DNA of 40,097 nt from Minisyncoccota bacterium. Lineage in GTDB: Bacteria > Patescibacteriota > Minisyncoccia > 2-02-FULL-40-12 > GWA2-44-9. How positions within the stretch are numbered: position 1 is the stretch's first letter; every line of letters begins with the position of its first letter. Below are positions 14,014-38,293 of this stretch, piece after piece. The translations under genes and the position numbers were made by a program. The DNA is taken from positions 1 to 40,097 of the forward strand of contig JAGOSO010000006.1 of NCBI GenBank assembly GCA_018062285.1, written 5' to 3'. A model generated the notes under the pieces. The model saw nothing but the letters and a program-made list of their open reading frames with translations, was not told the origin of the DNA and ran no database searches.

Positions 14014-14538
14014 ATGAATCAATCATTATTTTTGACTATAAATGGCTGGGCTGGTCACCGTGTTTGGCTAGATGCTTTGATGTATTTTTGTGCCGAGTAT
14101 TTAATGTATGTCATGATTTTGGCAGTGGTTGTTTATGTGATTATTGATTATAAACGCTGGCGCGATATGGCCATTGTTTCTGTTGGCTCAGCCCTAGTGG
14201 CCCGCTTTGTTGTGGCTTCCGGTATTAGAATGTTTTATTACCATGCCCGTCCTTATTGGGTCCTCGCCCAGACCCACATGCTGATTACTCCAGAGAAGAC
14301 TAGTTCTTTCCCTTCCGGTCACACAATTTTTGTTTTCTCTTTGGCCATGGCCGTTTATCAGTATAATAAAAAGGTTGGCAACTGGTTTTTTCTAGCCGCA
14401 ATCTTGGTTGGATTTTCTCGTATCTTTGCCGGTGCTCACTGGCCCTACGACATTGTTGCCGGTGCGGTCCTTGGCGTTTTGACTGCTATTGTTTGTGTTT
14501 GGGGATTTAAAAAATATGTAATCAAAGCCGTGAGATAA
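14014..14538 (+). CDS. PAP2 membrane phosphatase, likely undecaprenyl-diphosphatase (BcrC-like)
   Basis: RP, SFPSGH and SRIFAGAHWPYD motifs. Confidence 0.85.
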   Translation: MNQSLFLTINGWAGHRVWLDALMYFCAEYLMYVMILAVVVYVIIDYKRWRDMAIVSVGSALVARFVVASGIRMFYYHARPYWVLAQTHMLITPEKTSSFPSGHTIFVFSLAMAVYQYNKKVGNWFFLAAILVGFSRIFAGAHWPYDIVAGAVLGVLTAIVCVWGFKKYVIKAVR

Positions 14539-15428
14539 TGGTTAATTCAGAAAAACCATCACTGCCAGGTAATTCTCCAGAAGATGAGAAAAAACCAACT
14601 CGACAGCAAAGAGACATTTCTGATTTTAAAGAATTTGTTAGGTTGAATCTGGATACAGTCAAATATTCATTTAAGGCAGAGGATGATATCTATTGGAAAT
14701 TTTATTCGCATAGTGGGGATAGTCAGATAGACCCAAATTCGGATGAAGCGGTTTCTATTAAGAGTGATTACGCCAGGGATTTAAAAGTTGCGGCTGATAC
14801 TCTCGGTCCTTCTTCATCTGGTAAGGTAAATATTAAGGAAGATCATTATTGGTTCCATGTCATCACCAACAAAGGTTTTGATAGTCGCGAAATTGGCGGA
14901 AGGATTTACTTTAATGTGGACATAAGTGCCGCCCCAACTTTTATGGGCAACCTTGCTCTCGCTTTGGCCGCTAAAGGAGTTAATTGTCATATTAAGTTGC
15001 CTCAATCTTCTAAGGCCATAGAATGTGTCTCTAGGGCGGATAAAATCGTATTGTATTTTAACCAGAGCCAAGAGGCTGAGGTTTTGGCTGTTGTTGAAAA
15101 TGAACATAGTCTCTACTCGGATAAATTTACTGATGTTACACCAAGATTTACCAGTGTCCTCAAGGATTCAAACGGTGCATTAATGGAAGGTGTTGCTTTT
15201 GGGGAAGAGCGAAGTGGTTGGTCTTTCGGTGAACTTCGTAGCCGAGCTTTGGTCGGAGTTCTATTTAGCGCCAAAAGTAAAGGCTTAACAATTTTTGATT
15301 CTAGCTTCAATTTTGAGGAAGAATTGCGTGAATCTTTTGAGCATCTTGGTATTGACCCTCAGAATCCTAGCTTTAATAAAAGTGAGACGGATGAGTTTAA
15401 GCTTATAAAGCAAAGGATTGCTGATTAA
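14538..15428 (+). CDS. Hypothetical protein resembling the HopA1 effector / phosphothreonine-lyase-fold family
   Basis: Motif order GRIYFN, HIKL, RADKIVLYF, TPRFT, GVAFGEE, SFGELRSRAL, recognised by eye. Confidence 0.55.
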   Translation: MVNSEKPSLPGNSPEDEKKPTRQQRDISDFKEFVRLNLDTVKYSFKAEDDIYWKFYSHSGDSQIDPNSDEAVSIKSDYARDLKVAADTLGPSSSGKVNIKEDHYWFHVITNKGFDSREIGGRIYFNVDISAAPTFMGNLALALAAKGVNCHIKLPQSSKAIECVSRADKIVLYFNQSQEAEVLAVVENEHSLYSDKFTDVTPRFTSVLKDSNGALMEGVAFGEERSGWSFGELRSRALVGVLFSAKSKGLTIFDSSFNFEEELRESFEHLGIDPQNPSFNKSETDEFKLIKQRIAD

Positions 15429-21836: not shown

Positions 21837-21902
21837 TATATGTATATATTACCTTGCTAAACTAGAAAAGCGCAAGTTAATGTGCTAAAGTTTATATATC
21901 AT

Positions 21903-22625
21903 ATGCATCTATCTGTTATTATTCCAGCCAAGAACGAAGAACGCCTCATTGAGTCGACTGTCACTTCTGTTTTTAAATATTTATCATCTAAAAATATTAG
22001 CCACGAGATATTGGTCGTGACTAACAAATCAACCGATAAGACTGGCGAGATCGTTAATCGGTTACAAAACTCCACTGTTCCCACTGTGAGTTTAATGGAT
22101 TATCCAAACAACGGGGGGAAGGGTTTTGCGGTTAAGGAAGGCATGCTAAAAGCAGTTGGTGATTATCGTTTGTTTATGGATGCCGATAATTCAACTACCA
22201 TTAACCACATAGAAAGAATGATGCCTTATTTCTATAAGGGCTACGGCGTTGTTATTGGTTCAATTGCCGTTGAGGGTAAAACCGTTACAAAGGGAAGCGA
22301 GCCATTCTGGAGAATTTTGTTTGGGCGCATGGGTAACTTATTTATTCAGGTAATGGCGGTTCCTGGAATTCGTGACACTCAGCGTGGTTTCAAAATGGTA
22401 ACCGCTAAAGCTGCTCAAGATGTTTTTCCGAAGATAACTATTTTGCAGTGGGGATTTGATGCGGAGATGTTGGCTTTGGCGCGTAAGTTCGGACACAAGA
22501 TCAAAGAGGTTCCTGTTGATTGGAATAATGGCTCAAATTCCCGTGTCAGTCTTAAGACTTATTTTGAAGTATTGTTAGATACAGTAAAAATCCGCTGGAA
22601 TCTTTTAACGGGTAAATATAACTAA
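21903..22625 (+). CDS. GT2 polyprenol-phosphate glycosyltransferase (DPM/Alg5-like)
   Basis: SVIIPAKNEE, GKGFAVKEG, FMDADNS, DTQRGFK, FDAEML. Confidence 0.85.
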   Translation: MHLSVIIPAKNEERLIESTVTSVFKYLSSKNISHEILVVTNKSTDKTGEIVNRLQNSTVPTVSLMDYPNNGGKGFAVKEGMLKAVGDYRLFMDADNSTTINHIERMMPYFYKGYGVVIGSIAVEGKTVTKGSEPFWRILFGRMGNLFIQVMAVPGIRDTQRGFKMVTAKAAQDVFPKITILQWGFDAEMLALARKFGHKIKEVPVDWNNGSNSRVSLKTYFEVLLDTVKIRWNLLTGKYN

Positions 22626-23630
22626 GTGTTAAACGAATTTAGACAAGATCTAATTTCTGGCGAGTGGATTCTTTTTTCGACTGCTCGGGCCAAGAAGCCT
22701 CATCCGAAAGATGAGGGACCATTCTATCAATCGAAAGAGGAATGTTTTTTTGAGCCAGAAAAAATGAACCAACAGGAAACTCCTGTTGTCATATACAACA
22801 AGGGACAGAAAGTTTCAGATTTGTCTGGAGAATGGACAACTGTCGTTATTCCTAATAAATTCCCAGCCTTAACGAAGGGTGTTTGTTCCAAATCCCGTTC
22901 GGTCGGTCCTTTTGCTGTTGTTGATGGTAATGGTTTCCATGAACTGGTCATAACTCGAGATCACGAAAAGAGTTTTGCCCAGTTCTCAGAAGAAGAAACG
23001 TCTGAGATCCTGAGAGTTTATCTGGAGCGATATAGGGAAATTTCAAAAGATGATTGCGGGCAATACATATCAATCTTCCATAATCATGGACGTTTGGCTG
23101 GTGGCTCTGTTTACCATCATCATTCTCAAATCATATCCATGCCCATGGTCCCATCTTTTATTTCTCGTCATCTCGATTCCGCCAAAAAGTATTTTGATAA
23201 AACCGGAAAGAATATTCATCAAGATTTAATTGATTGGGAGGTTTCAGAAGGCAAGAGAATTGTCTATCAGAATGAGGGTTTTATTGCTATTTGTCCCTAT
23301 GTAAGTAAGACCGAATACGAGATTGTTATTTTCCCAAAGAAAGATAAACCAGATTTCATAGATATCTCAGAAGAAGAGGTTCCACTTTTGGCCAACATCT
23401 TGAATGGTGTCTTGGGCAAGCTCTACAAGGCTTTGGATAATGTTGATTATGCTTTTTTTATCCATACTGTTCCGCCCAATAAGGAGGGTGTGCTTGGCCA
23501 TGCTAATTACCGGTGGCATTTGGAGATTATTCCAAGAGTCAAAATTGATGCGGGTCTTGAGTTGGGGACTGGTGTCTTGGTTAATACTGTTGACCCAGAT
23601 GAAGCCGCTAATTTATTACGTAACTCTTAA
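22626..23630 (+). CDS. galT: Galactose-1-phosphate uridylyltransferase family protein
   Basis: RQDLISGEW..RAKKP, NKFPAL, HELVI, N.G..AG.S..HHHSQ, WHLEIIPR. Confidence 0.8.
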   Translation: MLNEFRQDLISGEWILFSTARAKKPHPKDEGPFYQSKEECFFEPEKMNQQETPVVIYNKGQKVSDLSGEWTTVVIPNKFPALTKGVCSKSRSVGPFAVVDGNGFHELVITRDHEKSFAQFSEEETSEILRVYLERYREISKDDCGQYISIFHNHGRLAGGSVYHHHSQIISMPMVPSFISRHLDSAKKYFDKTGKNIHQDLIDWEVSEGKRIVYQNEGFIAICPYVSKTEYEIVIFPKKDKPDFIDISEEEVPLLANILNGVLGKLYKALDNVDYAFFIHTVPPNKEGVLGHANYRWHLEIIPRVKIDAGLELGTGVLVNTVDPDEAANLLRNS

Positions 23631-23635
23631 ATATT

Positions 23636-24241
23636 ATGATTACAGAATTTTTATCTAATTTCGTAGTGCATGTTCTCACAGGGCTTGGCTATACAGGACT
23701 ATTTGTCCTTTCTCTTCTTGAAAGTGCGGCCATTCCAATACCATCAGAGATAGTTTTGCCATTTGCTGGGTTTTTGGTGGCATCAGGTCAATTTTTGTTT
23801 TGGCCAGCAGTATTATTGGCCACTTTGGGTAATATAGTTGGTTCGGCTATTTTGTTCTGGGTTGGAATTTCTGGTGGTCGCTGGATTTTAGAAAAATATG
23901 GCAAGTATGTTTTTATTCATGACAAAGAAATTGAAAAGGGTGATGCATGGTTTGCTCGGCATGGAGTCAAGGCTGTTTTTTGGGGAAGAATGATGCCAAT
24001 TGTTCGAACGTTTATTTCTTTGCCCGCAGGAGTAAATAAAATGAATTTTAAAAAATTTTTAGTATTTACTTCTTTTGGAGCTTTGCCTTGGAATTTCGCA
24101 CTGGTTTATTTGGGGATTAAAGCAGGAGAGAATTGGGATTCCTTCCGTCCGTACTTTCATATTTTTGATTATGTTATTGGTGTCATAGTCGTCGCTTTGG
24201 TTATCCGGCATTTTATTAAGAATAAAAAACATAGCCATTAA
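23636..24241 (+). CDS. dedA: DedA family membrane protein
   Basis: LES..IPIPSE..LPFAG, GRMMPIVRTFISLPAG. Confidence 0.9.
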   Translation: MITEFLSNFVVHVLTGLGYTGLFVLSLLESAAIPIPSEIVLPFAGFLVASGQFLFWPAVLLATLGNIVGSAILFWVGISGGRWILEKYGKYVFIHDKEIEKGDAWFARHGVKAVFWGRMMPIVRTFISLPAGVNKMNFKKFLVFTSFGALPWNFALVYLGIKAGENWDSFRPYFHIFDYVIGVIVVALVIRHFIKNKKHSH

Positions 24242-27382: not shown

Positions 27383-27420
27383 TGATTGGTAAAACTCATA
27401 TTTTTGTGTTATAATGGTTG

Positions 27421-27801
27421 GAGTATGTAGACAATCGCTTCTGTGCTTTCGGGTGCAGGGGAGGAAAGTCCGGGCACTATCTTGTCTCGCAAGAGACAGA
27501 TAAAACGGTAGTGGGTAATCCCCATCTACAGTAATGTAAGAGGTGCGAACAGAGACGTCTTGGTTCGAAAGGACCAGAGAGCTAAACCCAGATCATTGAT
27601 TTATCAAAGATCATAGCTTAGTTCCAATCGGGGATACAAGATTGGAGGTGAAACGGCCAAATCCTTACTGGAGTGCAAGATCAAATTCCGATTTATCGGA
27701 ATAAAAGTAGATCGCTTGAGTCTGGCAGTAATGCCAAGACCAGATAAATGGTTGTCCGGTCGTCGCAAGACGACTATACAGAACCCGGCTTATCGCATGC
27801 T
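27421..27801 (+). ncRNA. rnpB: RNase P RNA
   Basis: GAGGAAAGTCCGGGC (27461-27475) and ACAGAACCCGGCTTA form P4; P1, P2, P5 and P7 pairings can be traced; TGtTATAAT lies upstream. Confidence 0.95.
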
Positions 27802-27836
27802 AAATCAAACTCCCGCTTCGGCGGGAGTTTGATTTA
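27801..27836. terminator. Terminator after rnpB
   Basis: Perfect 16-bp stem with TTCG loop. Confidence 0.88.
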
Positions 27837-27874
27837 GATTGAAAAAGAGTGCTGGACATGTTAGTATTTATATT

Positions 27875-29269
27875 GTGAAAAAAGCAGATCTATTTTTTAA
27901 CGTTATTCGGTTGCCAGTGGACTTCGGGATGCTCATCCTGTCCGGCCTCGCTACTTACTTGCTCCGAACTCAGTTGTTGGTCGGTTTAAGACCGGTTTAT
28001 TTTGAGTTTAATTTACCGTTACTTTCTTACCTTTCTTTGGTTGCGATCGTCGGGCTTGTTTTTATCGGCGCCTACGCAATCTCTGGATTGTATTCAATGA
28101 AGTATCGTATTGGTAAAGCAGAAGAAGTTCTTCGTGTAATCGTGGCTTCTTCGGCGGGTATCATGCTCGTTATAGTTTTTATCTTCTTGCAACAGGCCCT
28201 GTTCAATTCTCGTTTCTTGGTTTTGGGAGCCTGGGTGATGGCCATGATTTTTGTCATTATGGGGCGCCTGTTGATTCGTTATTTTCAGCATGTTGCAGTG
28301 GCTCGTTATGGCTTCGGTATCCAAAGGGTGATTATAATTGGCAATGATGCTGTGGCAGAGGGCTTGAAAGAAAGATTAACCAGACGTTTGGATTCTGGTT
28401 ATCGCATTGTTGATCACTGGGATACACCAAAGCTCGACATGCTAGAAAGTATCAAGAATGATGTAGATGAAATTTTGCTGGTTACTCCACATTATGCCGA
28501 TTTGACCGTAGTCGATTTAGTTGATTTTTGTCACGAGCATCACATTATCTTTAAATTCGTTCCTAATTTATATCAAACTCTTACAAAGCATCTCGATGTC
28601 GATACTATTGGCACAGTGCCCGTTATTGAACTCAAACGTACTCGTCTCGATGGTTGGGGCAGAGTATTTAAGCGCGTCTTAGATATTATTATTTCTGGTT
28701 TGGGTTTGATAATTTTATCTCCAGTGTTTTTGATCGTGGCAATATTTGTAAAAACGGAGACTCGCGGACCAGTGTTTATTAGGCAGGAAAGGGTTAGTGG
28801 GAAAAACAAATTTATTCTTTTTAAATTTAGAAGCATGATCTCCGTTGACCCAGACGGTTCGGCCGATTCTTTGAAAGAGAGTTTGCATGATTTAAATGAA
28901 CGACAGTCTGGTCCACTTTTTAAAATTAAAGACGACCCTCGCATAACTAAGGTCGGAAGGTTTATCCGCAGAACAAGAATAGACGAGTTCCCTCAGTTCT
29001 GGAATGTTTTAAGGGGTGATATTAGTCTTGTTGGCCCACGCCCTCATCTATCCAGCGAGATTATTCACTACGAAAAACACCACAAGAAAGTATTGGCAAT
29101 TAAGGCCGGGGCAACTGGTTTGGCTCAAGTTTCTGGTAGCTCCGATTTGCCGTTTGATGAAGAAGTTAAGCTCGATAGTTTCTATATTGAGAACTGGTCA
29201 ATGGCTATGGACCTAAGGATTATTTTCCGGACGGTCTTTAAGATGTTGCGCGATCACTCGGCAGTGTAG
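27875..29269 (+). CDS. Undecaprenyl-phosphate sugar phosphotransferase (WcaJ/WbaP/CpsE family)
   Basis: N-terminal TMs, KRVLD, FKFRSM, DPRITKVGRFIRRTRIDEFPQ, SLVGPRP. GTG 27875 lies 7 nt after TTGAAA-17-TAGTAT. Confidence 0.92.
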   Translation: MKKADLFFNVIRLPVDFGMLILSGLATYLLRTQLLVGLRPVYFEFNLPLLSYLSLVAIVGLVFIGAYAISGLYSMKYRIGKAEEVLRVIVASSAGIMLVIVFIFLQQALFNSRFLVLGAWVMAMIFVIMGRLLIRYFQHVAVARYGFGIQRVIIIGNDAVAEGLKERLTRRLDSGYRIVDHWDTPKLDMLESIKNDVDEILLVTPHYADLTVVDLVDFCHEHHIIFKFVPNLYQTLTKHLDVDTIGTVPVIELKRTRLDGWGRVFKRVLDIIISGLGLIILSPVFLIVAIFVKTETRGPVFIRQERVSGKNKFILFKFRSMISVDPDGSADSLKESLHDLNERQSGPLFKIKDDPRITKVGRFIRRTRIDEFPQFWNVLRGDISLVGPRPHLSSEIIHYEKHHKKVLAIKAGATGLAQVSGSSDLPFDEEVKLDSFYIENWSMAMDLRIIFRTVFKMLRDHSAV

Positions 29270-29281
29270 TAGGCTAACAGC

Positions 29282-30367
29282 ATGCGCATTGCCTTCGTCC
29301 ATGAGTATCTAAACCAATTCGGTGGTGCCGAAAGAACCCTCTCTGTTTTATCAGAGATGTTCCCATCTGCTCCGATATATACCCTTATTTATAGCGAACA
29401 GGCGACTAAGGGTTTGTTTAAAGACAGGAACATCAAGACTTCATTCCTTCAAAAATTCCCCAATGCTGTTAGCCACCACGAGTGGTATCCAATGTTGATG
29501 CCTTTGGCCATGGAACAGTTTGATTTCTCTGAATATGATGTAATTATCTCCGTCTCAGCTTCTTTTGCGAAAGGCGTTATCACTAAACCGACCACGCGCC
29601 ATATTTGTTATTGCCTGACTCCACCTAGATTCCTTTGGGATAATAGTCAAAAATTCAGCAAAGATTTTGGATTCCCGTTTATTATTAAGCTCGTCAGCCA
29701 GCCCCTTATTTCTTATTTGAGAATGTGGGATCAATCCGCGGCTGATCGTGTGGATGAATTCTGGAAGATATCAAACTTCGTGGGTCGAAGAATCGAAAAA
29801 TATTATCATAAAAAAGCGCATCTAATTTATCCGCCCGTTGATATTTCAAAATTTCCATTAGCCCAAGAATATCCGAGGGATTATTTTTTAATGGCTGGTC
29901 GTCTTGTTTCCTATAAAAAATTTGATGTGGCAGTTCGGGCTTTTAACAAGCTTGGTTTACCTCTTAAAATAATCGGTACTGGCCCAGAGTTGAAAAAGCT
30001 CAAAAAGATGTCCAGCCCTAATGTGCAATTTTTAGGCCAAGTAAGTGACGAAAAATTGGGTGAGTATTATCGAGGTGCTAAAGCTCTTATTTTCCCTCAA
30101 GAGGAAGATTTCGGTATTGTCCCGCTTGAGGCAATGGCTTCTGGTCGGCCCGTGATCTCTTATCGTGGTGGTGGAGCAGAGGAGACAATCGCTGAAAATA
30201 AAACCGGTATATTCTTTGATCAGCAAACGCCGGAATCGATTATTGAGGCGGTTAAATCTTTTTCTTCCAAAAAATTTGATCCATCTGAGTGTCGCGCTCA
30301 GGCTGAAAAATTTAGCATAGAAGTTTTTAAGGATGCGATTTTATCAGCAATTAATCTCAAACCATAA
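29282..30367 (+). CDS. GT4 (group 1) glycosyltransferase
   Basis: HEYLNQFGGAER, GRLVSYK, EDFGIVPLEAMASGRPV. Confidence 0.9.
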   Translation: MRIAFVHEYLNQFGGAERTLSVLSEMFPSAPIYTLIYSEQATKGLFKDRNIKTSFLQKFPNAVSHHEWYPMLMPLAMEQFDFSEYDVIISVSASFAKGVITKPTTRHICYCLTPPRFLWDNSQKFSKDFGFPFIIKLVSQPLISYLRMWDQSAADRVDEFWKISNFVGRRIEKYYHKKAHLIYPPVDISKFPLAQEYPRDYFLMAGRLVSYKKFDVAVRAFNKLGLPLKIIGTGPELKKLKKMSSPNVQFLGQVSDEKLGEYYRGAKALIFPQEEDFGIVPLEAMASGRPVISYRGGGAEETIAENKTGIFFDQQTPESIIEAVKSFSSKKFDPSECRAQAEKFSIEVFKDAILSAINLKP

Positions 30368-30370
30368 AAC

Positions 30371-31501
30371 ATGATCATTGGAGTCGATATCCGCCCCATG
30401 GCTGGCCCCAAGACTGGGATACAAGAATATACTGAGCAGATTCTAAAAAATATGATCTTGCTCGGCTCAGAGCATAAGTTCAAATTGTTCTTCTCTTCTT
30501 TTTCTGGGCAAGCACCAAGAAGGCCCTGGATGGATGCGCCGAATGTGGAATTGGTTGAATATCGCATTTCAAGTAATCTTTTATTTTTGGTAGGTAAAAT
30601 ATTTGGATATCCATTTATTGACGATTTGATTGGTGGGGCTGATGTCTTTTTCTCACCTCATTTTTTTATGGCCCCACTTTCTAAAAAATGCCGACGGGTT
30701 ACTACTTTTCACGATCTTTCCTATCTTAGATTCCCCAATTTTTTCACTTGGCGGAAACTTTGGTGGCACAATGTGGAAATGAGTCCCCATTGGCAAGCCA
30801 GATTTTCCAATCATATTATTTCTGTTTCTGAATCCACAAAAGCCGATCTCGTTAAATTTTACGATATAGATCCAGTTAATATTTCAGTGGTTCATTCTGG
30901 CGTTAATGTTTCTCGCCCCGTTGAGAATGTCCTAAGGGTTTTTAAAAAAGAAAATAATCTTCCTGATAGATATATTTTGCATGTTGGTACTATTGAGCCT
31001 CGAAAAAATATTACTGGCCTAATCCGCGCCTTTAATATTTTAAAAGAAGACTTAGATTACGATGATGTGGAACTTGTTTTGGTTGGTAAGGATGGGTGGC
31101 ATATTGAAGAAGTTCTGAGCGAAATTCAAAATTCTCCTCATAAAAATAAAATAAGACGTCTGGGTCACGTTGGGGGAGACCTGGCCCCTTATTATGGACT
31201 GGCAACAGTTTGTGTTTGCCCATCTTTTTTTGAAGGATTTGGATTTCCTGTTTTAGAAGCGATGGCTTGTGGTTTGCCGGTTATTTCTTCAGCTACTTCT
31301 TCTTTGCCGGAGGTGGCGGGCAATTCGGCAATTTATATAAACCCTTACAATGTCTCAGAAATAGTCGAGGCTCTCAAACTTGTTCTTTCTTCGGAGTGGC
31401 TAAGGGATAAAATGGCAAAAGAGGGTCTGTTAATTTCAAATAAATTTAGTTGGATTGGCACCGCTCGCCAAAGCCTGGCCATATTAACTCGTAAGCAATA
31501 A
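30371..31501 (+). CDS. GT4 (group 1) glycosyltransferase
   Basis: TFHDL, VGTIEPRKN, PSFFEGFGFPVLEAMACG. Confidence 0.9.
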   Translation: MIIGVDIRPMAGPKTGIQEYTEQILKNMILLGSEHKFKLFFSSFSGQAPRRPWMDAPNVELVEYRISSNLLFLVGKIFGYPFIDDLIGGADVFFSPHFFMAPLSKKCRRVTTFHDLSYLRFPNFFTWRKLWWHNVEMSPHWQARFSNHIISVSESTKADLVKFYDIDPVNISVVHSGVNVSRPVENVLRVFKKENNLPDRYILHVGTIEPRKNITGLIRAFNILKEDLDYDDVELVLVGKDGWHIEEVLSEIQNSPHKNKIRRLGHVGGDLAPYYGLATVCVCPSFFEGFGFPVLEAMACGLPVISSATSSLPEVAGNSAIYINPYNVSEIVEALKLVLSSEWLRDKMAKEGLLISNKFSWIGTARQSLAILTRKQ

Positions 31502-31545: not shown

Positions 31546-34173
31546 ATGCCCCCTTCTACCCGAATGCCATTTGGGGCCATATTCGATGTTAAGCCGGTGG
31601 ATGATTCCGGCTCTCTTGATTTTGACAAAATCAACTCCGTCCAACCAACGGTTAATTTGTCGTCTTTCCGTCCTAAAAAATTAATTAGAAATCAAAAACC
31701 AGCTTCAGTTTCAGCTCAGAAATCTTATTCTGCCGTGCTTCCTCAGGCCCAAGAATTACCGCCAGTGATTGGTTTGCCATCAAAACAAGATATTAAAGAC
31801 CAATTCGACGAATTGATGAGCCATGATTTAGATCTTGGTGTTGAGTTGGCCAAAGTTTCCATGGGGGGCAAGGGCATAGAAACGAGTCGGGCAATAAGAT
31901 TGAGTCGCCCAAGATTTAAAATAGCCCAAAGCAATATTCCTGAGTTGGCCAAGCCCGAAGAAGAGGATTTGTATGCCCCAATTATTTCTAGCATACATCA
32001 CTCAGCGACAATAATTTCTAGGGAAGAATACGAAAAACCAGTAGAGCCTGTTGCCGAAGAGGTCTCGATATATCAAGAAAATAATTTGCCTGCAGAACTA
32101 TCCGAATCTGCTGAGTTGGATGTGCGTGCTTTATTTTACAGCCCCGCTCCAGCCGTATCGGTTTTACCTGTTATGTCCACTGCTCCTAAGATGGACTTTA
32201 AGACCAGGGTCATATCGACACCTAAAATTAAAAAAACTTTTAAGTGGCCCAAGATAGTAATTCCCAAAAGGTATCTTTTGCTAATAGGCGCAATCATTAT
32301 TGCTTCTGGGATAGTGACTCGCTATGCTTTAGGTATTAAAAAACAAATTGTGCAACAGAGTTCAGAAGCTGTTGCAAATCTCCAGACGGCACAGGAGGAT
32401 TTAAAGGCTTTAGATTTTGGTAATGCCTCTCAGGATTTCTTTTCGGCTTACGCTAATTTTTCCAAGGCGGGCGATAGTCTTAATTTGTTTGGTGCGGGTA
32501 TTACAAACATTATTGCTTCTCTTCCTGGTGGAAGCTCTTTGAAATCAGCCAAGAATTTGGTTCAGGTCGGACAATTACTTTCATCTGTCGGCACATCAAT
32601 GACTTCAGCCCTTAATGCTGTTTCAAAAACTGGGGCTTTGTCTAATCCCACAAACCCTCAGTTGCCAGTTGGTCCAATCGTCGGAGCCTTAAAGAAAGCT
32701 CTTCTTGCGTCAAAGCAACAAGTTGCTCAAGCAAGCTCTTTGATGGCTGACATTGATAGTAGTATTATCCCAGCCGATAAACAGGATGGTTTTAACGATT
32801 TAAAAATAAAGTTGCCTGAAATTGAAAGAGGGGTAAATATGAGTGCAGATTATGCTAAATTTTTTGATAACTTAATTAATTCCCCAGGCTATCATCGGTA
32901 TTTGGTGATGTTCCAAAATGGTTCAGAATTAAGACCAACCGGGGGATTCCCTGGAACTTACGGAGTCGTGGGTTTCAAAGATGGTTTGCTCGATAGTTTC
33001 TTTGTTGACGATGTCTACAATATAGATGGCCAACTAAAAGAAAATATAATTCCACCAATCCAAATGCAGCACATTACCCCAAATTGGGGCATGCGTGATG
33101 CTAACTGGTATGTAGATTTTTCTGCTTCTGCAAAAAATATAGAGAAATTTTATAAAAAAGAAGCTGACCTTAAAATTGATGGAGTTATTGTTGTGAACCC
33201 AGAAATGATTGCTAAGATTTTAGATATTGTTGGCCCCGTGGAAATGACTCAGTACAATCTAACACTTAACGCCAAGAATGTTTTGACGACTATCCAAAGC
33301 CAGGTGGAGTATGGCGCTAATCGTGTTCAGCCAAAACAGATTGTTAAAGATTTTGCCCCATTATTACTATCAAAGATTTACAGCGCCGGTTCCGATAAGT
33401 GGATACAAATTTTTGATACCGTAATTCAAAGCATGAATCAGAAAAATGTTTTGATGAGTTTTAACGATTTGTCTTTGGAAAGTTTTGTGACCGACAAGGG
33501 TTTTGGTGGCCAAGTCCACCAAGGAGACGCTGATTATCTAATGGCTACCCTCACCAATATTAAAGGCTCAAAGACTGACGCAGTTACTGACACTTCCATG
33601 ACCGTCGATACTACATTCGACAATACAACAGCAATTCACACATTAACCATTACACGTAAGCACAATGGTGGGGGAGAGAAATATGGTTTTTATAATAAAC
33701 AAAATCCGTCCTATGCTCGTGTCTTGGTCCCAGATGGGTCTGAGTTGATTTCTGTGTCTGGTAATGACCAACCAAATTTTAAACCATTGATAAATTATGC
33801 TGGCTCTAATTTTGTGAGAGATGAAACTTTGGTTAAGTTTGAAGCTAGCGGCAAGACAGACCCCGTAACTGGCGTAACAACTTATCACGAATCTGGAAAA
33901 ACAGAGTTTGGTTTCTGGTTAATCACAGACCCTGGCAAAACCAAAACAGTATCCATTCAGTATCGTGTTCCAAAAGCTTTAACCGGCAAGACATATCAGT
34001 TGTATATTCAAAAGCAGCCAGCCCTAAAGGTTAAAAGCTTTACCTTCTCAATGCAGAAGCCAGAAGGCTTAACTCCTGACGCTTCTGCTCCTTTGTTAAC
34101 CCAGAAAGATTCTTCATATAGTTATTCCGCTCCTCTTGAAAACGACTTAACCGTTAAGGTTAATTTTAAGTAG
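31546..34173 (+). CDS. DUF4012 domain membrane-anchored protein
   Basis: About 240-aa low-complexity N-terminus, single TM, helical region, then YLVMFQN.SELRPTGGF, RDANW..DF, DGVIVVNP, N..G.K.D. Confidence 0.8.
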   Translation: MPPSTRMPFGAIFDVKPVDDSGSLDFDKINSVQPTVNLSSFRPKKLIRNQKPASVSAQKSYSAVLPQAQELPPVIGLPSKQDIKDQFDELMSHDLDLGVELAKVSMGGKGIETSRAIRLSRPRFKIAQSNIPELAKPEEEDLYAPIISSIHHSATIISREEYEKPVEPVAEEVSIYQENNLPAELSESAELDVRALFYSPAPAVSVLPVMSTAPKMDFKTRVISTPKIKKTFKWPKIVIPKRYLLLIGAIIIASGIVTRYALGIKKQIVQQSSEAVANLQTAQEDLKALDFGNASQDFFSAYANFSKAGDSLNLFGAGITNIIASLPGGSSLKSAKNLVQVGQLLSSVGTSMTSALNAVSKTGALSNPTNPQLPVGPIVGALKKALLASKQQVAQASSLMADIDSSIIPADKQDGFNDLKIKLPEIERGVNMSADYAKFFDNLINSPGYHRYLVMFQNGSELRPTGGFPGTYGVVGFKDGLLDSFFVDDVYNIDGQLKENIIPPIQMQHITPNWGMRDANWYVDFSASAKNIEKFYKKEADLKIDGVIVVNPEMIAKILDIVGPVEMTQYNLTLNAKNVLTTIQSQVEYGANRVQPKQIVKDFAPLLLSKIYSAGSDKWIQIFDTVIQSMNQKNVLMSFNDLSLESFVTDKGFGGQVHQGDADYLMATLTNIKGSKTDAVTDTSMTVDTTFDNTTAIHTLTITRKHNGGGEKYGFYNKQNPSYARVLVPDGSELISVSGNDQPNFKPLINYAGSNFVRDETLVKFEASGKTDPVTGVTTYHESGKTEFGFWLITDPGKTKTVSIQYRVPKALTGKTYQLYIQKQPALKVKSFTFSMQKPEGLTPDASAPLLTQKDSSYSYSAPLENDLTVKVNFK

Positions 34174-34207: not shown

Positions 34208-35536
34208 ATGTTTAAATCTAAGATATTACGTTCAGGTGTTATTCTTGGGGCCTTTAGCTTCTTGGCCTCATTGGTTGGATTGTTGCGAGATAGAATTTTT
34301 ACTTCTGAGTTCGGCGCATCAAGGACTTTGGATATTTATTACAGTGCCTTTAAAGTGCCGGATTTAGTTTTTAATATATTGCTCTTGGGGGCGGTGTCTT
34401 CGGCTTTCTTGCCTGTTTTTATCAGTGAGTTTAAGCGTGATGAATCCAGTGCTTGGCGCATAGCTCATAATTTTACAACCATAACTTTTGGTTTGGTTTT
34501 GTTTTTCTCGGCTTTATTGTGGGTGTTTGCTGGTTCCTTTGCCTCTTTAATCGCCCCAGGTTTTATTGGCGCAGATCGCCAGTTGGTTGTCTCACTTACT
34601 CGAATAATGCTTTTGTCTCCGATTCTTTTTTCTTTGAGCACTATTTGTGGTTCGATACTGCAATCATTTGAAAGATTCTGGGCCTACGCCATTGCTCCTG
34701 TTTTATATAACGTCGGAATTATTTTAGGCGCAATTTATTTGGTGCCGATTTTTCGGTCCCATGGCTATCCAGAAGTTTATGGCTTGGGATGGGGAGTGGT
34801 GCTCGGTGCGTTCATGCATTTTGTTTTGCAGTACGTTGCGGCTCGAAGAGCTGGCTTTAGATTTAAAACTGTTTTCGACTTAGGCGACCATAATTTCAGA
34901 AAGATTTTCCGATTAATGATCCCAAGAACTATTGGGTTGGGGGCCTATAGTATTGATTCGACCGTCATTAATGCCATCGCTTCTACTTTGGGGGTGGGAA
35001 GTATTGCTGTTTTGAATGTGGCAAACAATATTCAATTTGTCCCTATCTCCATGGTCGGTATCTCAATGGCCATCGCCGTATTTCCAAGATTGTCCCAGCA
35101 TGCTTCTTCTGATGAACATGGCGAATTCAAGGATAAAATAAAGCAGTCACTGGTAAATTCTTTATTAATAGTTGTACCCCTTTCTCTTGCCGGATTTTTC
35201 TTGGCCCATTGGGGGATTAGCTTGTTGTTCGGCGCAGGTCTTTACCAAGGCTCAAGCGTTGATTTAACGGCCAAGGTTTTGATGGCTTTCATGATTGGTA
35301 TCCCTGCCCAAAGTGTTATTCCAATTTTGTCCCGGGCTTTCTATGCTCTTCAAAATACTCGTATCCCAGTTAGTATTTCGATTGCATCAATAATGGTGAA
35401 CTGGTTGGGCGCCTGGTTGTTTGGAATTCACTATCATTGGGGTGTTGTGGGCTTGGCCATGGCCTTTTCTGTGGCCGGGAACATTAACGCCATATTGCTT
35501 TGGTTATTCTTGCGACGTTACCAAAAAATGGTATAA
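34208..35536 (+). CDS. murJ: MurJ/MviN family flippase, C-terminally shortened
   Basis: GLLRD..F..FGA, AF.VPD, AFLPVF, APVLYN, SRAFYA...TR.P. Confidence 0.85.
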   Translation: MFKSKILRSGVILGAFSFLASLVGLLRDRIFTSEFGASRTLDIYYSAFKVPDLVFNILLLGAVSSAFLPVFISEFKRDESSAWRIAHNFTTITFGLVLFFSALLWVFAGSFASLIAPGFIGADRQLVVSLTRIMLLSPILFSLSTICGSILQSFERFWAYAIAPVLYNVGIILGAIYLVPIFRSHGYPEVYGLGWGVVLGAFMHFVLQYVAARRAGFRFKTVFDLGDHNFRKIFRLMIPRTIGLGAYSIDSTVINAIASTLGVGSIAVLNVANNIQFVPISMVGISMAIAVFPRLSQHASSDEHGEFKDKIKQSLVNSLLIVVPLSLAGFFLAHWGISLLFGAGLYQGSSVDLTAKVLMAFMIGIPAQSVIPILSRAFYALQNTRIPVSISIASIMVNWLGAWLFGIHYHWGVVGLAMAFSVAGNINAILLWLFLRRYQKMV

Positions 35537-35551
35537 TAGGCCAACAATCAC

Positions 35552-36013
35552 ATGAGCCCAGAAAGAAACTTATTTGATGACCCAGAGCCAGTAACCACAA
35601 CGGATCACAATCCTGATCCAGACGTTTGGCGTCATCACCCAGCGATGCCAACTCGGCCTGATGTTTTACCAAAATCTTCTAGAGGGACCCACTCCAATCC
35701 TGGGGTCGTGGCAGAAGAATTGCCTGAGCGTGGGGATAGACCAGAAGAAATCCCCAAACCTGACAGTCTAAATACTGGTTGGGTAGAAAATTTCCCAGAG
35801 TTGTTCGATTTGAATACTGGTCATTTGATTTATGGAATTATTGAGGCGTATGCTGATTATCAGAAATCAAAAATCTCTGACGACCAAAAAGGAATCGATG
35901 CCTTCCATAAGTTTGTCCAAGAATATTTGGGTGGCGGCAGAATTGGTTCTGTGGTCCATCATTTCTTGAAATGTAAACATTGTAGAGACCTTCGTGATGG
36001 AAAAACGCCTTAA
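35552..36013 (+). CDS. Hypothetical protein with C-terminal HxxxCxxC
   Basis: 153-aa ORF behind TGgTATAAT (35529-35537); Pro/acidic N-terminus. Confidence 0.65.
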   Translation: MSPERNLFDDPEPVTTTDHNPDPDVWRHHPAMPTRPDVLPKSSRGTHSNPGVVAEELPERGDRPEEIPKPDSLNTGWVENFPELFDLNTGHLIYGIIEAYADYQKSKISDDQKGIDAFHKFVQEYLGGGRIGSVVHHFLKCKHCRDLRDGKTP

Positions 36014-37878: not shown

Positions 37879-37960
37879 TCTCACACCTTTCCTGAGGTTG
37901 TTTGCTGTTTAAAAATTGACTAGAGAGTGTTCCTGGTGATAGTATCGTTTCGAGGTGACC

Positions 37961-38278
37961 TTGGCTGTTATTGCCCCTTCTCGTAAGAAATTCAGTTTTG
38001 TTCAGAGTTCGGTGGCTGAGAGATCGGCGGAGATCCAGAAGCATATCGATAGGATTGTCGGCGAGGCATTTTCTGGTCTTCAGCGCCACGCTCGTTTCGC
38101 CCGAGTTGTCAGGTTTGCTTTTAGCCTGTCATTCTTTGTGGGTATCAACGACAAGGGTGCAATTGCTCATGCCGTTGAGGTGTATCGAGCTCTTGGTTGG
38201 ACCGTCGACTATTCCATCTCGGGTTCTAATTGTGAGATGAAGTTGAGGTCGAAAGTACTCAAATCTAACGGTGGCTAA
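37961..38278 (+). CDS. Hypothetical protein (about 105 aa)
   Basis: TTGACT-18-TAGTAT promoter, GAGGTG before TTG 37961 (GTG 37955 is an alternative start), terminator downstream. Confidence 0.6.
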   Translation: MAVIAPSRKKFSFVQSSVAERSAEIQKHIDRIVGEAFSGLQRHARFARVVRFAFSLSFFVGINDKGAIAHAVEVYRALGWTVDYSISGSNCEMKLRSKVLKSNGG

Positions 38279-38293
38279 TAGCCACCTTTTTTT
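38270..38293 (+). terminator. Terminator after ORF 37961
   Basis: ggtggct-aat-agccacc followed by T7. Confidence 0.75.

Follow-up and report, generated by a model that had tools for sequence, protein, structure and literature searches.

The window analysed here, a 40,097-nucleotide stretch of DNA from a Minisyncoccota bacterium (GenBank assembly GCA_018062285.1, contig JAGOSO010000006.1), carries a gene for an 875-aa protein of the DUF4012 family (31546..34173, + strand, stop codon included). An earlier note on this DNA, made from the sequence alone, had proposed that DUF4012 is a diverged LytR-CpsA-Psr (LCP) phosphotransferase. In our analysis, this proposal held at the level of the fold as predicted with AlphaFold2 (AF2) and compared with Foldseek; of the catalytic residues, the LCP Arg triad, its Asp/Gln, and its Mg-binding Asp pair were not recognisably conserved. 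We regard it as somewhat probable that the gene product is a divergent LCP-fold protein whose substrate, on the outer side of the membrane, is the lipid-linked glycan that the neighbouring enzymes produce, and that either ligates or releases it, and an LCP-like function of DUF4012 is plausible. This reading is built on the observed domain architecture, the resemblance of the predicted fold, the family-wide invariant polar residues, and the gene context.

Domain layout and predicted fold of the core

An AF2 model of aa 245-875 was built from an 87-sequence alignment, and its mean pLDDT (predicted local distance difference test) and pTM (predicted template modelling score) were 84.2 and 0.78, respectively. 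The model ran from a transmembrane (TM) segment with a helical region through an alpha/beta core to an all-beta C-terminal region. The core (aa 445-671; 32878..33558, +), delimited by pLDDT and Foldseek, lay at construct residues 205-410 with a pLDDT of approximately 86-94. When the model was searched against the PDB with Foldseek, the top match was 3pe5_A (E 5.4e-5), which is an LCP protein by its own sequence (E 5e-36 to the LCP consensus), and it was followed by TagV, YvhJ, EF0465, and six Cps2A entries. The non-LCP matches of this model were all beta-sandwich proteins, namely inter-alpha-inhibitor heavy chain 1 (ITIH1, 6fpy), the aminopeptidase N N-domain, and a yeast oligosaccharyltransferase (OST) subunit (6ezn_A). 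These matches are probably explained by the C-terminal beta-sandwich predicted at aa 672-875 (33559..34170, +), a region that AF2 modelled as all-beta with a pLDDT of 94-97.

The core was also modelled alone (aa 439-669, pLDDT 77.5). Among the 350,542 chains searched, its top 31 Foldseek matches were all LCP structures, drawn from more than 20 entries, with E values of 2.1e-5 to 4e-2, probabilities of 0.85-1.0, and TMq values of 0.35-0.55 over 212-269 aligned columns. The matched entries comprised 3pe5, 3owq, 3qfi, 4obm, 3okz, 3nro, TagT/U/V, LcpA (6uex), and Cps2A, as well as MsrR (9gn3), BrpA (9cy9), and 8qty. Below these 31 matches, there was a cliff to actin-like ATPases, with a probability of at most 0.3 and a TM-score of at most 0.19. 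Since the top 31 places were held exclusively by LCP structures, the search is strong evidence that the predicted structure has an LCP fold. The LCP-domain fold is an alpha-beta-alpha arrangement with a central 5-7-stranded sheet, and it is by these matches that the predicted structure is assigned to it. The AlphaFold and Foldseek check that the earlier note had suggested thus gave a specific positive, both for the full ectodomain, whose best match was an LCP, and for the core. On this modelling, a fold relationship between the DUF4012 core and LCP is very likely. The core, which is the DUF4012 domain extended to aa ~445-671, appears to have the LCP-domain fold and is most likely a very remote LCP homologue; we infer homology rather than convergence.

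The region singled out by the earlier note (32890-33600) is an in-frame part of the open reading frame (ORF) 31546-34173 (+), which was defined by the ORF list, the Pfam match, and full-length homologues. The Pfam DUF4012 (PF13196) match covers aa 448-587 (nt 32887-33306; E 5e-25, 89.1 bits vs a cut-off of 28), and the Pfam model spans only the first ~140 aa of the ~225-aa core. The full-length homologues (40-72% identity) were all from Candidatus Yanofskybacteria, Paceibacterota, or Patescibacteria, and they place the window in a Yanofskybacteria-like genome of the Patescibacteria. The DUF4012 family as a whole comprised 8,651 clusters at 50% identity and E<=1e-3.

A single TM helix was placed at about aa 244-263 (32275..32334, +) by hydropathy and by the first long AF2 helix, which begins there, and it was the sole 19-aa window with a Kyte-Doolittle mean of at least 1.6. 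The flank N-terminal to the TM segment has a basic character that is especially marked in the Rhodococcus homologue, and an N-in single-pass orientation with an extracytoplasmic main domain is therefore indicated by the positive-inside rule. This agrees with the LCP-like topology claimed in the earlier note (a cytoplasmic N-terminus, one TM helix, and an extracellular domain), and the two extra features that the note had listed were also found, as a ~180-aa helical region predicted by AF2 and a ~243-aa cytoplasmic tail.

The tail (aa 1-243; 31546..32274, +), which was delimited by conservation and composition, is Pro/Ser-rich, poorly conserved except for the first ~45 aa, and probably disordered. 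Its length is ~40 aa in Actinobacteria and Firmicutes and 240-780 aa in homologues from the candidate phyla radiation (CPR), that is, the Patescibacteria. A conserved peptide with the consensus A.FD[IV]KPVD..G..D..KI..VQ was observed at aa 1-45 (31546-31680) in the CPR homologues. Its conservation at the extreme N-terminus of an otherwise unconserved tail suggests that a partner in the cytoplasm may dock there. On the other side of the membrane, the extracytoplasmic helical region (aa 264-444; 32335..32877, +) was recognised from AF2 helices and from an alignment with the Rhodococcus and Eubacterium homologues. The AF2 helices occupy construct residues 2-200 with a pLDDT of 50-85, the least confident part of the model. 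The spacing from the TM helix to the ExRxTGG motif described below was 215-240 aa in every homologue checked. The helical ectodomain is more than a spacer: it carries a loop motif, A.LPG.G...S, which it shares with its Rhodococcus and Eubacterium counterparts.

No recurrent fused Pfam domain was found across 52 diverse DUF4012 members; the single matches among them were one SBP_bac_5, one BapA_N, and a weak Perilipin. A weak match to Wzy_C (O-antigen ligase; E 0.006) was also observed in one of the 52. The long CPR homologues (1000-1400 aa) were considered as fusions to a polytopic Wzy/ligase domain, and this was rejected, each having a single TM helix and only a longer tail.

Gene context and the proposed late step in glycan assembly

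The DUF4012 gene lies in a tightly packed, one-strand gene order consisting of a priming transferase, two glycosyltransferases, DUF4012, MurJ, and then LepA. The first gene of the cluster encodes a priming polyprenyl-phosphate sugar-phosphate transferase (Bac_transf, PGT; 27839..29269, +; Pfam E 1.6e-59). It is followed by two GT4 glycosyltransferase (GT) genes, GT4a (29282..30367, +; Pfam Glycos_transf_1 E 1.2e-30) and GT4b (30371..31501, +; Pfam Glycos_transf_1 E 4.7e-31). A MurJ-family (MOP) flippase gene (34208..35536, +; Pfam MurJ E 2.1e-89) starts 34 nt 3' of DUF4012. No Wzy, Wzz, or LCP gene was found in the window. A canonical LCP ORF was also absent from 83 related loci, 1.4 Mb in all, and the note's remark that this locus lacks the ligase step is thus fair at the locus level.

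In 80 related Patescibacteria loci, PGT was found upstream of DUF4012 in 52, GT4a in 61, and GT4b in 36; MurJ and LepA were found downstream in 25 and 67 of the 80, respectively. The association with polysaccharide genes extends to other phyla. In B. longum, the DUF4012 gene lies between the priming GT and wzz, and DUF4012 is labelled an 'auxiliary protein' in the bifidobacterial exopolysaccharide (EPS) cluster (PMC5412050). On a Rhodococcus plasmid, DUF4012 was located directly 3' of a sugar transferase, inside a rhamnose/GT cluster. In three Actinobacteria, DUF4012 adjoined a Wzz+BY-kinase (bacterial tyrosine kinase) gene, and in Streptosporangium it was also beside a low-molecular-weight phosphotyrosine phosphatase, a priming GT, and a GT4. 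The corresponding slot in streptococcal cps loci (cpsA-B-C-D-E) is held by the LCP gene cpsA. Such neighbours would suit a protein that acts late in the assembly of a glycan.

A working model can be proposed from the layout of the protein and its neighbours. The upstream priming transferase and GT4 enzymes would build an oligosaccharide linked to polyprenyl-(pyro)phosphate, which would then be flipped. DUF4012, a bitopic protein with a cytoplasmic tail and a single TM helix that leads into an extracytoplasmic part made of the helical region, the alpha/beta core, and the beta-sandwich, may act on this lipid-linked oligosaccharide at the outer face of the membrane, the substrate and the chemistry being putative. 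The outcome could be either an LCP-like transfer of glycan(-phosphate), with the wall or a protein as the acceptor, or its release from the lipid carrier.

Sequence divergence, conserved residues, and alternative readings

Several results weigh against the reading of the protein as an LCP-fold enzyme of lipid-linked glycans. For the structure, the TM-scores of the LCP matches were modest (mostly 0.35-0.49, best 0.55) and the root-mean-square deviation (RMSD) was 7-12 A. For the sequence, no LCP (PF03816) match was obtained in Pfam even at E<=10. In HHalign, the DUF4012 core profile was compared with an LCP profile of 88 PF03816 proteins fetched with a consensus-like query, and the probability was 5% (P 0.007); with 260 sequences of wider diversity in the DUF4012 profile, it was 1% (P 0.05), and the global alignment was meaningless. 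For the catalytic residues, the LCP motifs RxD, PRD, KIN, and RfR..D..R..Q were without conserved counterparts in DUF4012 by sequence and strand order; 'VEYG.NR.QPK' replaces the LCP 'RfR...D..R..Q', and only K597 in it is family-wide. The ~180-residue helical domain between the TM helix and the core may, depending on geometry, hold the core off its membrane lipid substrate. For the context, the synteny in the 80 loci is a synteny among relatives, so that it is partly inherited gene order, and two of the five actinobacterial contexts were uninformative; in one of these two, a canonical LCP lies at a distance of 8 kb. Since LCPs occur in Actinobacteria as well, DUF4012 is not simply their replacement.

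DUF4012 is not a PF03816 member. NCBIfam gave no LCP or other informative family for the protein, and no relatives were found among the PDB sequences with the whole protein or a profile; the consensus-like LCP query did retrieve the solved LCP structures from the same PDB sequences. Since the local HHalign results were sub-significant and the global one meaningless, they are unusable for mapping catalytic residues. The sole stretch aligned in both HHalign runs was aa ~522-567 (...KIDGVIVVNPEMIAKILDIVGPVEM), which was paired with the LCP sequence 'gIpIDyYv.Vnf.gFk.iVDavGGV.V'. When an LCP hidden Markov model (HMM) was run with the HMMER filters off, the DUF4012 ORF of the window ranked top of 4539 control ORFs with 8.9-9.7 bits, and its aa 541-571 were aligned to HMM positions 98-128. 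The beta-alpha-beta segment concerned, ADLKIDGVIVVNPEMIAKILDIVGPVEMTQY (aa 541-571; 33166..33258, +), was the only stretch with detectable LCP similarity in HHalign and hmmsearch. The best scorers among the other DUF4012 proteins matched the LCP HMM at the corresponding beta-alpha-beta element, and the set of real DUF4012 sequences scored 4.6 bits in the LCP segment vs 1.3 bits for their own reversed sequences. The LCP signal in aa 541-571 thus appears faint but reproducible in sequence comparison.

The four peptide segments quoted in the earlier note were all present in the DUF4012 ORF at the positions it gave: ELRPTGGFPGTYGVV at aa 461-475, VDDVY at aa 487-491, MRDANW at aa 516-521 (nt 33091-33108), and KIDGVIVVNPEMIAKILDIVGPVEM at aa 543-567 (nt 33172-33246). 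Each had been paired with an LCP motif, and the pairings fared differently. The pairing of the last segment (KIDGV...GPVEM) with idyYv.vnf.gf..lvDalGGVev was supported, although marginally. For the other three (ELRPTGG with RsD, DDVY with PRD, and MRDANW with KINaAY), no sequence-statistical support was found, and only their positions are topologically plausible.

The LCP resemblance could be an artefact of prediction and search, with the DUF4012 fold being unrelated; the TM-scores mostly below 0.5, the high RMSDs, the non-significant profile-profile comparison, and an AF2 alignment drawn from one clade at 46-84% identity speak for this. However, two independent AF2 runs agreed in the order of secondary structure with high pLDDT, 31 consecutive LCP matches from more than 20 entries with nothing else comparable are unlike noise, and the lone sequence-level alignment falls on the matching beta-alpha-beta element. 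We therefore consider an artefact very improbable.

In LCP enzymes, a polyprenyl tunnel, which is hydrophobic and runs between the sheet and helices 3-7, is ringed at its mouth by clustered arginines, by Asp/Gln, and by a pair of aspartates that bind Mg; in Cps2A, the residues are R267, R362, R374, D371, and Q378, with D234 and D246 as Mg2+ ligands (PMC7831098). DUF4012 has a polar set of its own. Across CPR, Actinobacteria, and Firmicutes, Q457, E461, R463, T465, D545, N578, K597, and D678 were invariant or at least 90% conserved, and the invariant set was kept although the proteins compared, from CPR, Rhodococcus, mycobacteria, and one member of the Lachnospiraceae, are ~20% identical overall. 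The family signature E461-L-R463-P-T-G-G467 (32926..32946, +), identified in family alignments, lies in the beta1-beta2 loop. ExRxTGG was invariant in the 52 diverse members, Actinobacteria included, and was also present in the Rhodococcus and Eubacterium homologues. By strand order and the published LCP description (PMC7831098), this loop would be located topologically at LCP region A (R99-x-D101 in LcpA). By strand order, K597 would precede the helix that in LCP begins with the 'D..R..RQ' motif. A further motif, K673-G-S-K676-T-D678 (33562..33579, +), was found by conservation at the junction of the core and the beta-sandwich; K676 is shared with the homologues from Rhodococcus and Eubacterium, and D678 reached at least 90% conservation across the family. 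The ExRxTGG loop and the long loop after it had a pLDDT below 50 in the core-only model vs approximately 86-91 in the full model. This loss of confidence when the core is folded alone suggests that the conserved loops pack against another domain. The active site may thus have been re-made from E461-x-R463-x-TGG in the beta1-beta2 loop together with D545, N578, K597, and K676/D678, at a position that is likewise putative.

Since the LCP Arg/Asp catalytic set was not recognisable (PMC7831098), the protein could instead have kept an LCP-like fold, lost the LCP chemistry, and become a non-catalytic scaffold or regulator, an extracytoplasmic adaptor that, for example, organises the priming transferase, flippase, and Wzz/BY-kinase machinery or senses the state of the wall, with its tail recruiting partners. 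The long and variable cytoplasmic tail with its conserved N-terminal peptide, the similarity of the helical ectodomain to co-polymerase-type stalks, the adjacency to Wzz/BY-kinase genes, and the 'auxiliary protein' annotation (PMC5412050) are consistent with such a role. Nevertheless, E461, R463, D545, N578, K597, and D678 are invariant from CPR to Actinobacteria at about 20% identity, which is typical of a catalytic or ligand site, and protein-interaction domains were not detected. A scaffold role is thus considered unlikely.

The same invariant Glu, Arg, Asp, Asn, and Lys are unlike the residues of LCP, and they would also suit an extracytoplasmic enzyme of different chemistry, such as one active on peptidoglycan or one that modifies glycans as a hydrolase or lyase, which reuses or has converged on an LCP-like alpha/beta sandwich and would leave the lipid-pyrophosphate link untouched. 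Beta-sandwiches like the one at the C-terminus often serve in carbohydrate or wall binding, other beta-sandwich proteins were found by Foldseek, and the core may sit off the membrane on the helical region. Against this, Foldseek returned only LCPs for the core and no hydrolase or lyase fold, and the gene recurrently adjoins the priming transferase of lipid-linked synthesis (PMC5412050). We judge a different chemistry to be decidedly improbable and prefer the divergent LCP-fold protein acting on the lipid-linked glycan.

Other features of the window and comparison with known systems

Upstream of the glycan cluster, a full-length bacterial RNase P RNA class A was detected at 27419-27808 (+) with 107 bits, between the RNase H gene and PGT. 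The best sigma-70-like promoter match (27386-27415) was considered as the promoter of the glycan cluster and was not assigned to it, for it directly precedes the RNase P RNA gene and probably belongs to rnpB. At 21882-24241, upstream of the glycolytic genes TIM and PGK, there are genes for a GT2 glycosyltransferase, a GalT/HIT-like nucleotidyltransferase, and a VTT/DedA-family membrane protein. Of the 80 related loci, about 20 also have GalT and VTT upstream, and 9 have GT2. DedA proteins have been implicated in the recycling of polyprenyl-phosphate carriers, so they may belong functionally with the glycan cluster.

Two small ORFs, 35552-36013 (+, 153 aa) and 37955-38278 (+, 107 aa), matched nothing in Pfam, and tblastn did not find them in the 80 related loci despite the conservation of their neighbours MurJ and LepA. 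A strong terminator-like hairpin (38270-38286) overlaps the end of the 107-aa ORF. At 14538-15428 (+), directly 3' of a PAP2 phosphatase gene (14014-14538), a 296-aa ORF matched the Pfam HopA1 effector family (E 7e-16), and a protein of this type is unexpected in a Patescibacteria genome.

DUF4012 is enriched in CPR and Gram-positive lineages (PMC6744442). A literature search found no paper tying DUF4012 to LCP, and the mentions of DUF4012 give neither fold nor function. The fold-level link with LCP therefore offers a concrete and testable candidate for the attachment or release of surface polysaccharides, and with it the first testable job for a very widespread family without an assigned function. 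In the ultra-small, host-dependent Patescibacteria, it bears on the cell envelope, which mediates their epibiotic life; in bifidobacteria and actinobacteria, it bears on EPS and capsule biology. If the link is true, the LCP superfamily would be widened to a lineage with different catalytic residues. As a tentative and rather doubtful extension, DUF4012 might be a second LCP-superfamily branch with a new catalytic motif (ExRxTGG + K597/D678), which would take Wzx-type glycans through their final extracytoplasmic step, in Patescibacteria as well as in many EPS and capsular polysaccharide (CPS) loci of actinobacteria and bifidobacteria, either by ligation to peptidoglycan or a surface protein or by release from undecaprenyl pyrophosphate.

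Among known systems, the closest comparison is with the LCP proteins (PF03816), glycopolymer phosphotransferases that anchor sugar polymers in the Gram-positive wall, represented by S. pneumoniae Cps2A, B. subtilis TagT/U/V, S. aureus LcpA, and A. oris LcpA. DUF4012 resembles them in the predicted alpha/beta/alpha core fold, in being bitopic and N-in with an extracytoplasmic domain, in a faint sequence similarity of one beta-alpha-beta segment, and in being encoded next to the priming transferase and Wzz/BY-kinase genes of polysaccharide loci. Its conserved charged residues in the beta1-beta2 loop may also occupy the LCP region A site. However, DUF4012 lacks a significant sequence or profile match to LCP and shows no recognisable LCP Arg triad, Asp, Gln, or Mg-binding Asp pair. 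It has instead a signature of its own (ExRxTGG, vDGV, N578, K597, and N..G.K.D), a ~180-aa helical ectodomain before the core, a beta-sandwich after it, and, in CPR, a long tail.

Within the DUF4012 family, the protein can be compared with B. longum 105-A BL105A_0406, Rhodococcus qingshengii WP_197486178.1, and [Eubacterium] eligens WP_012740572.1. The window protein shares with the family a TM helix 215-240 aa before ExRxTGG, followed by the core and the beta-sandwich, as well as the association with polysaccharide loci, and the family motifs ExRxTGG and vDGV...P......L...G are all present in it. The CPR proteins differ from the other members in a much longer tail (240-780 aa) and in a larger C-terminal beta-sandwich with an insert.

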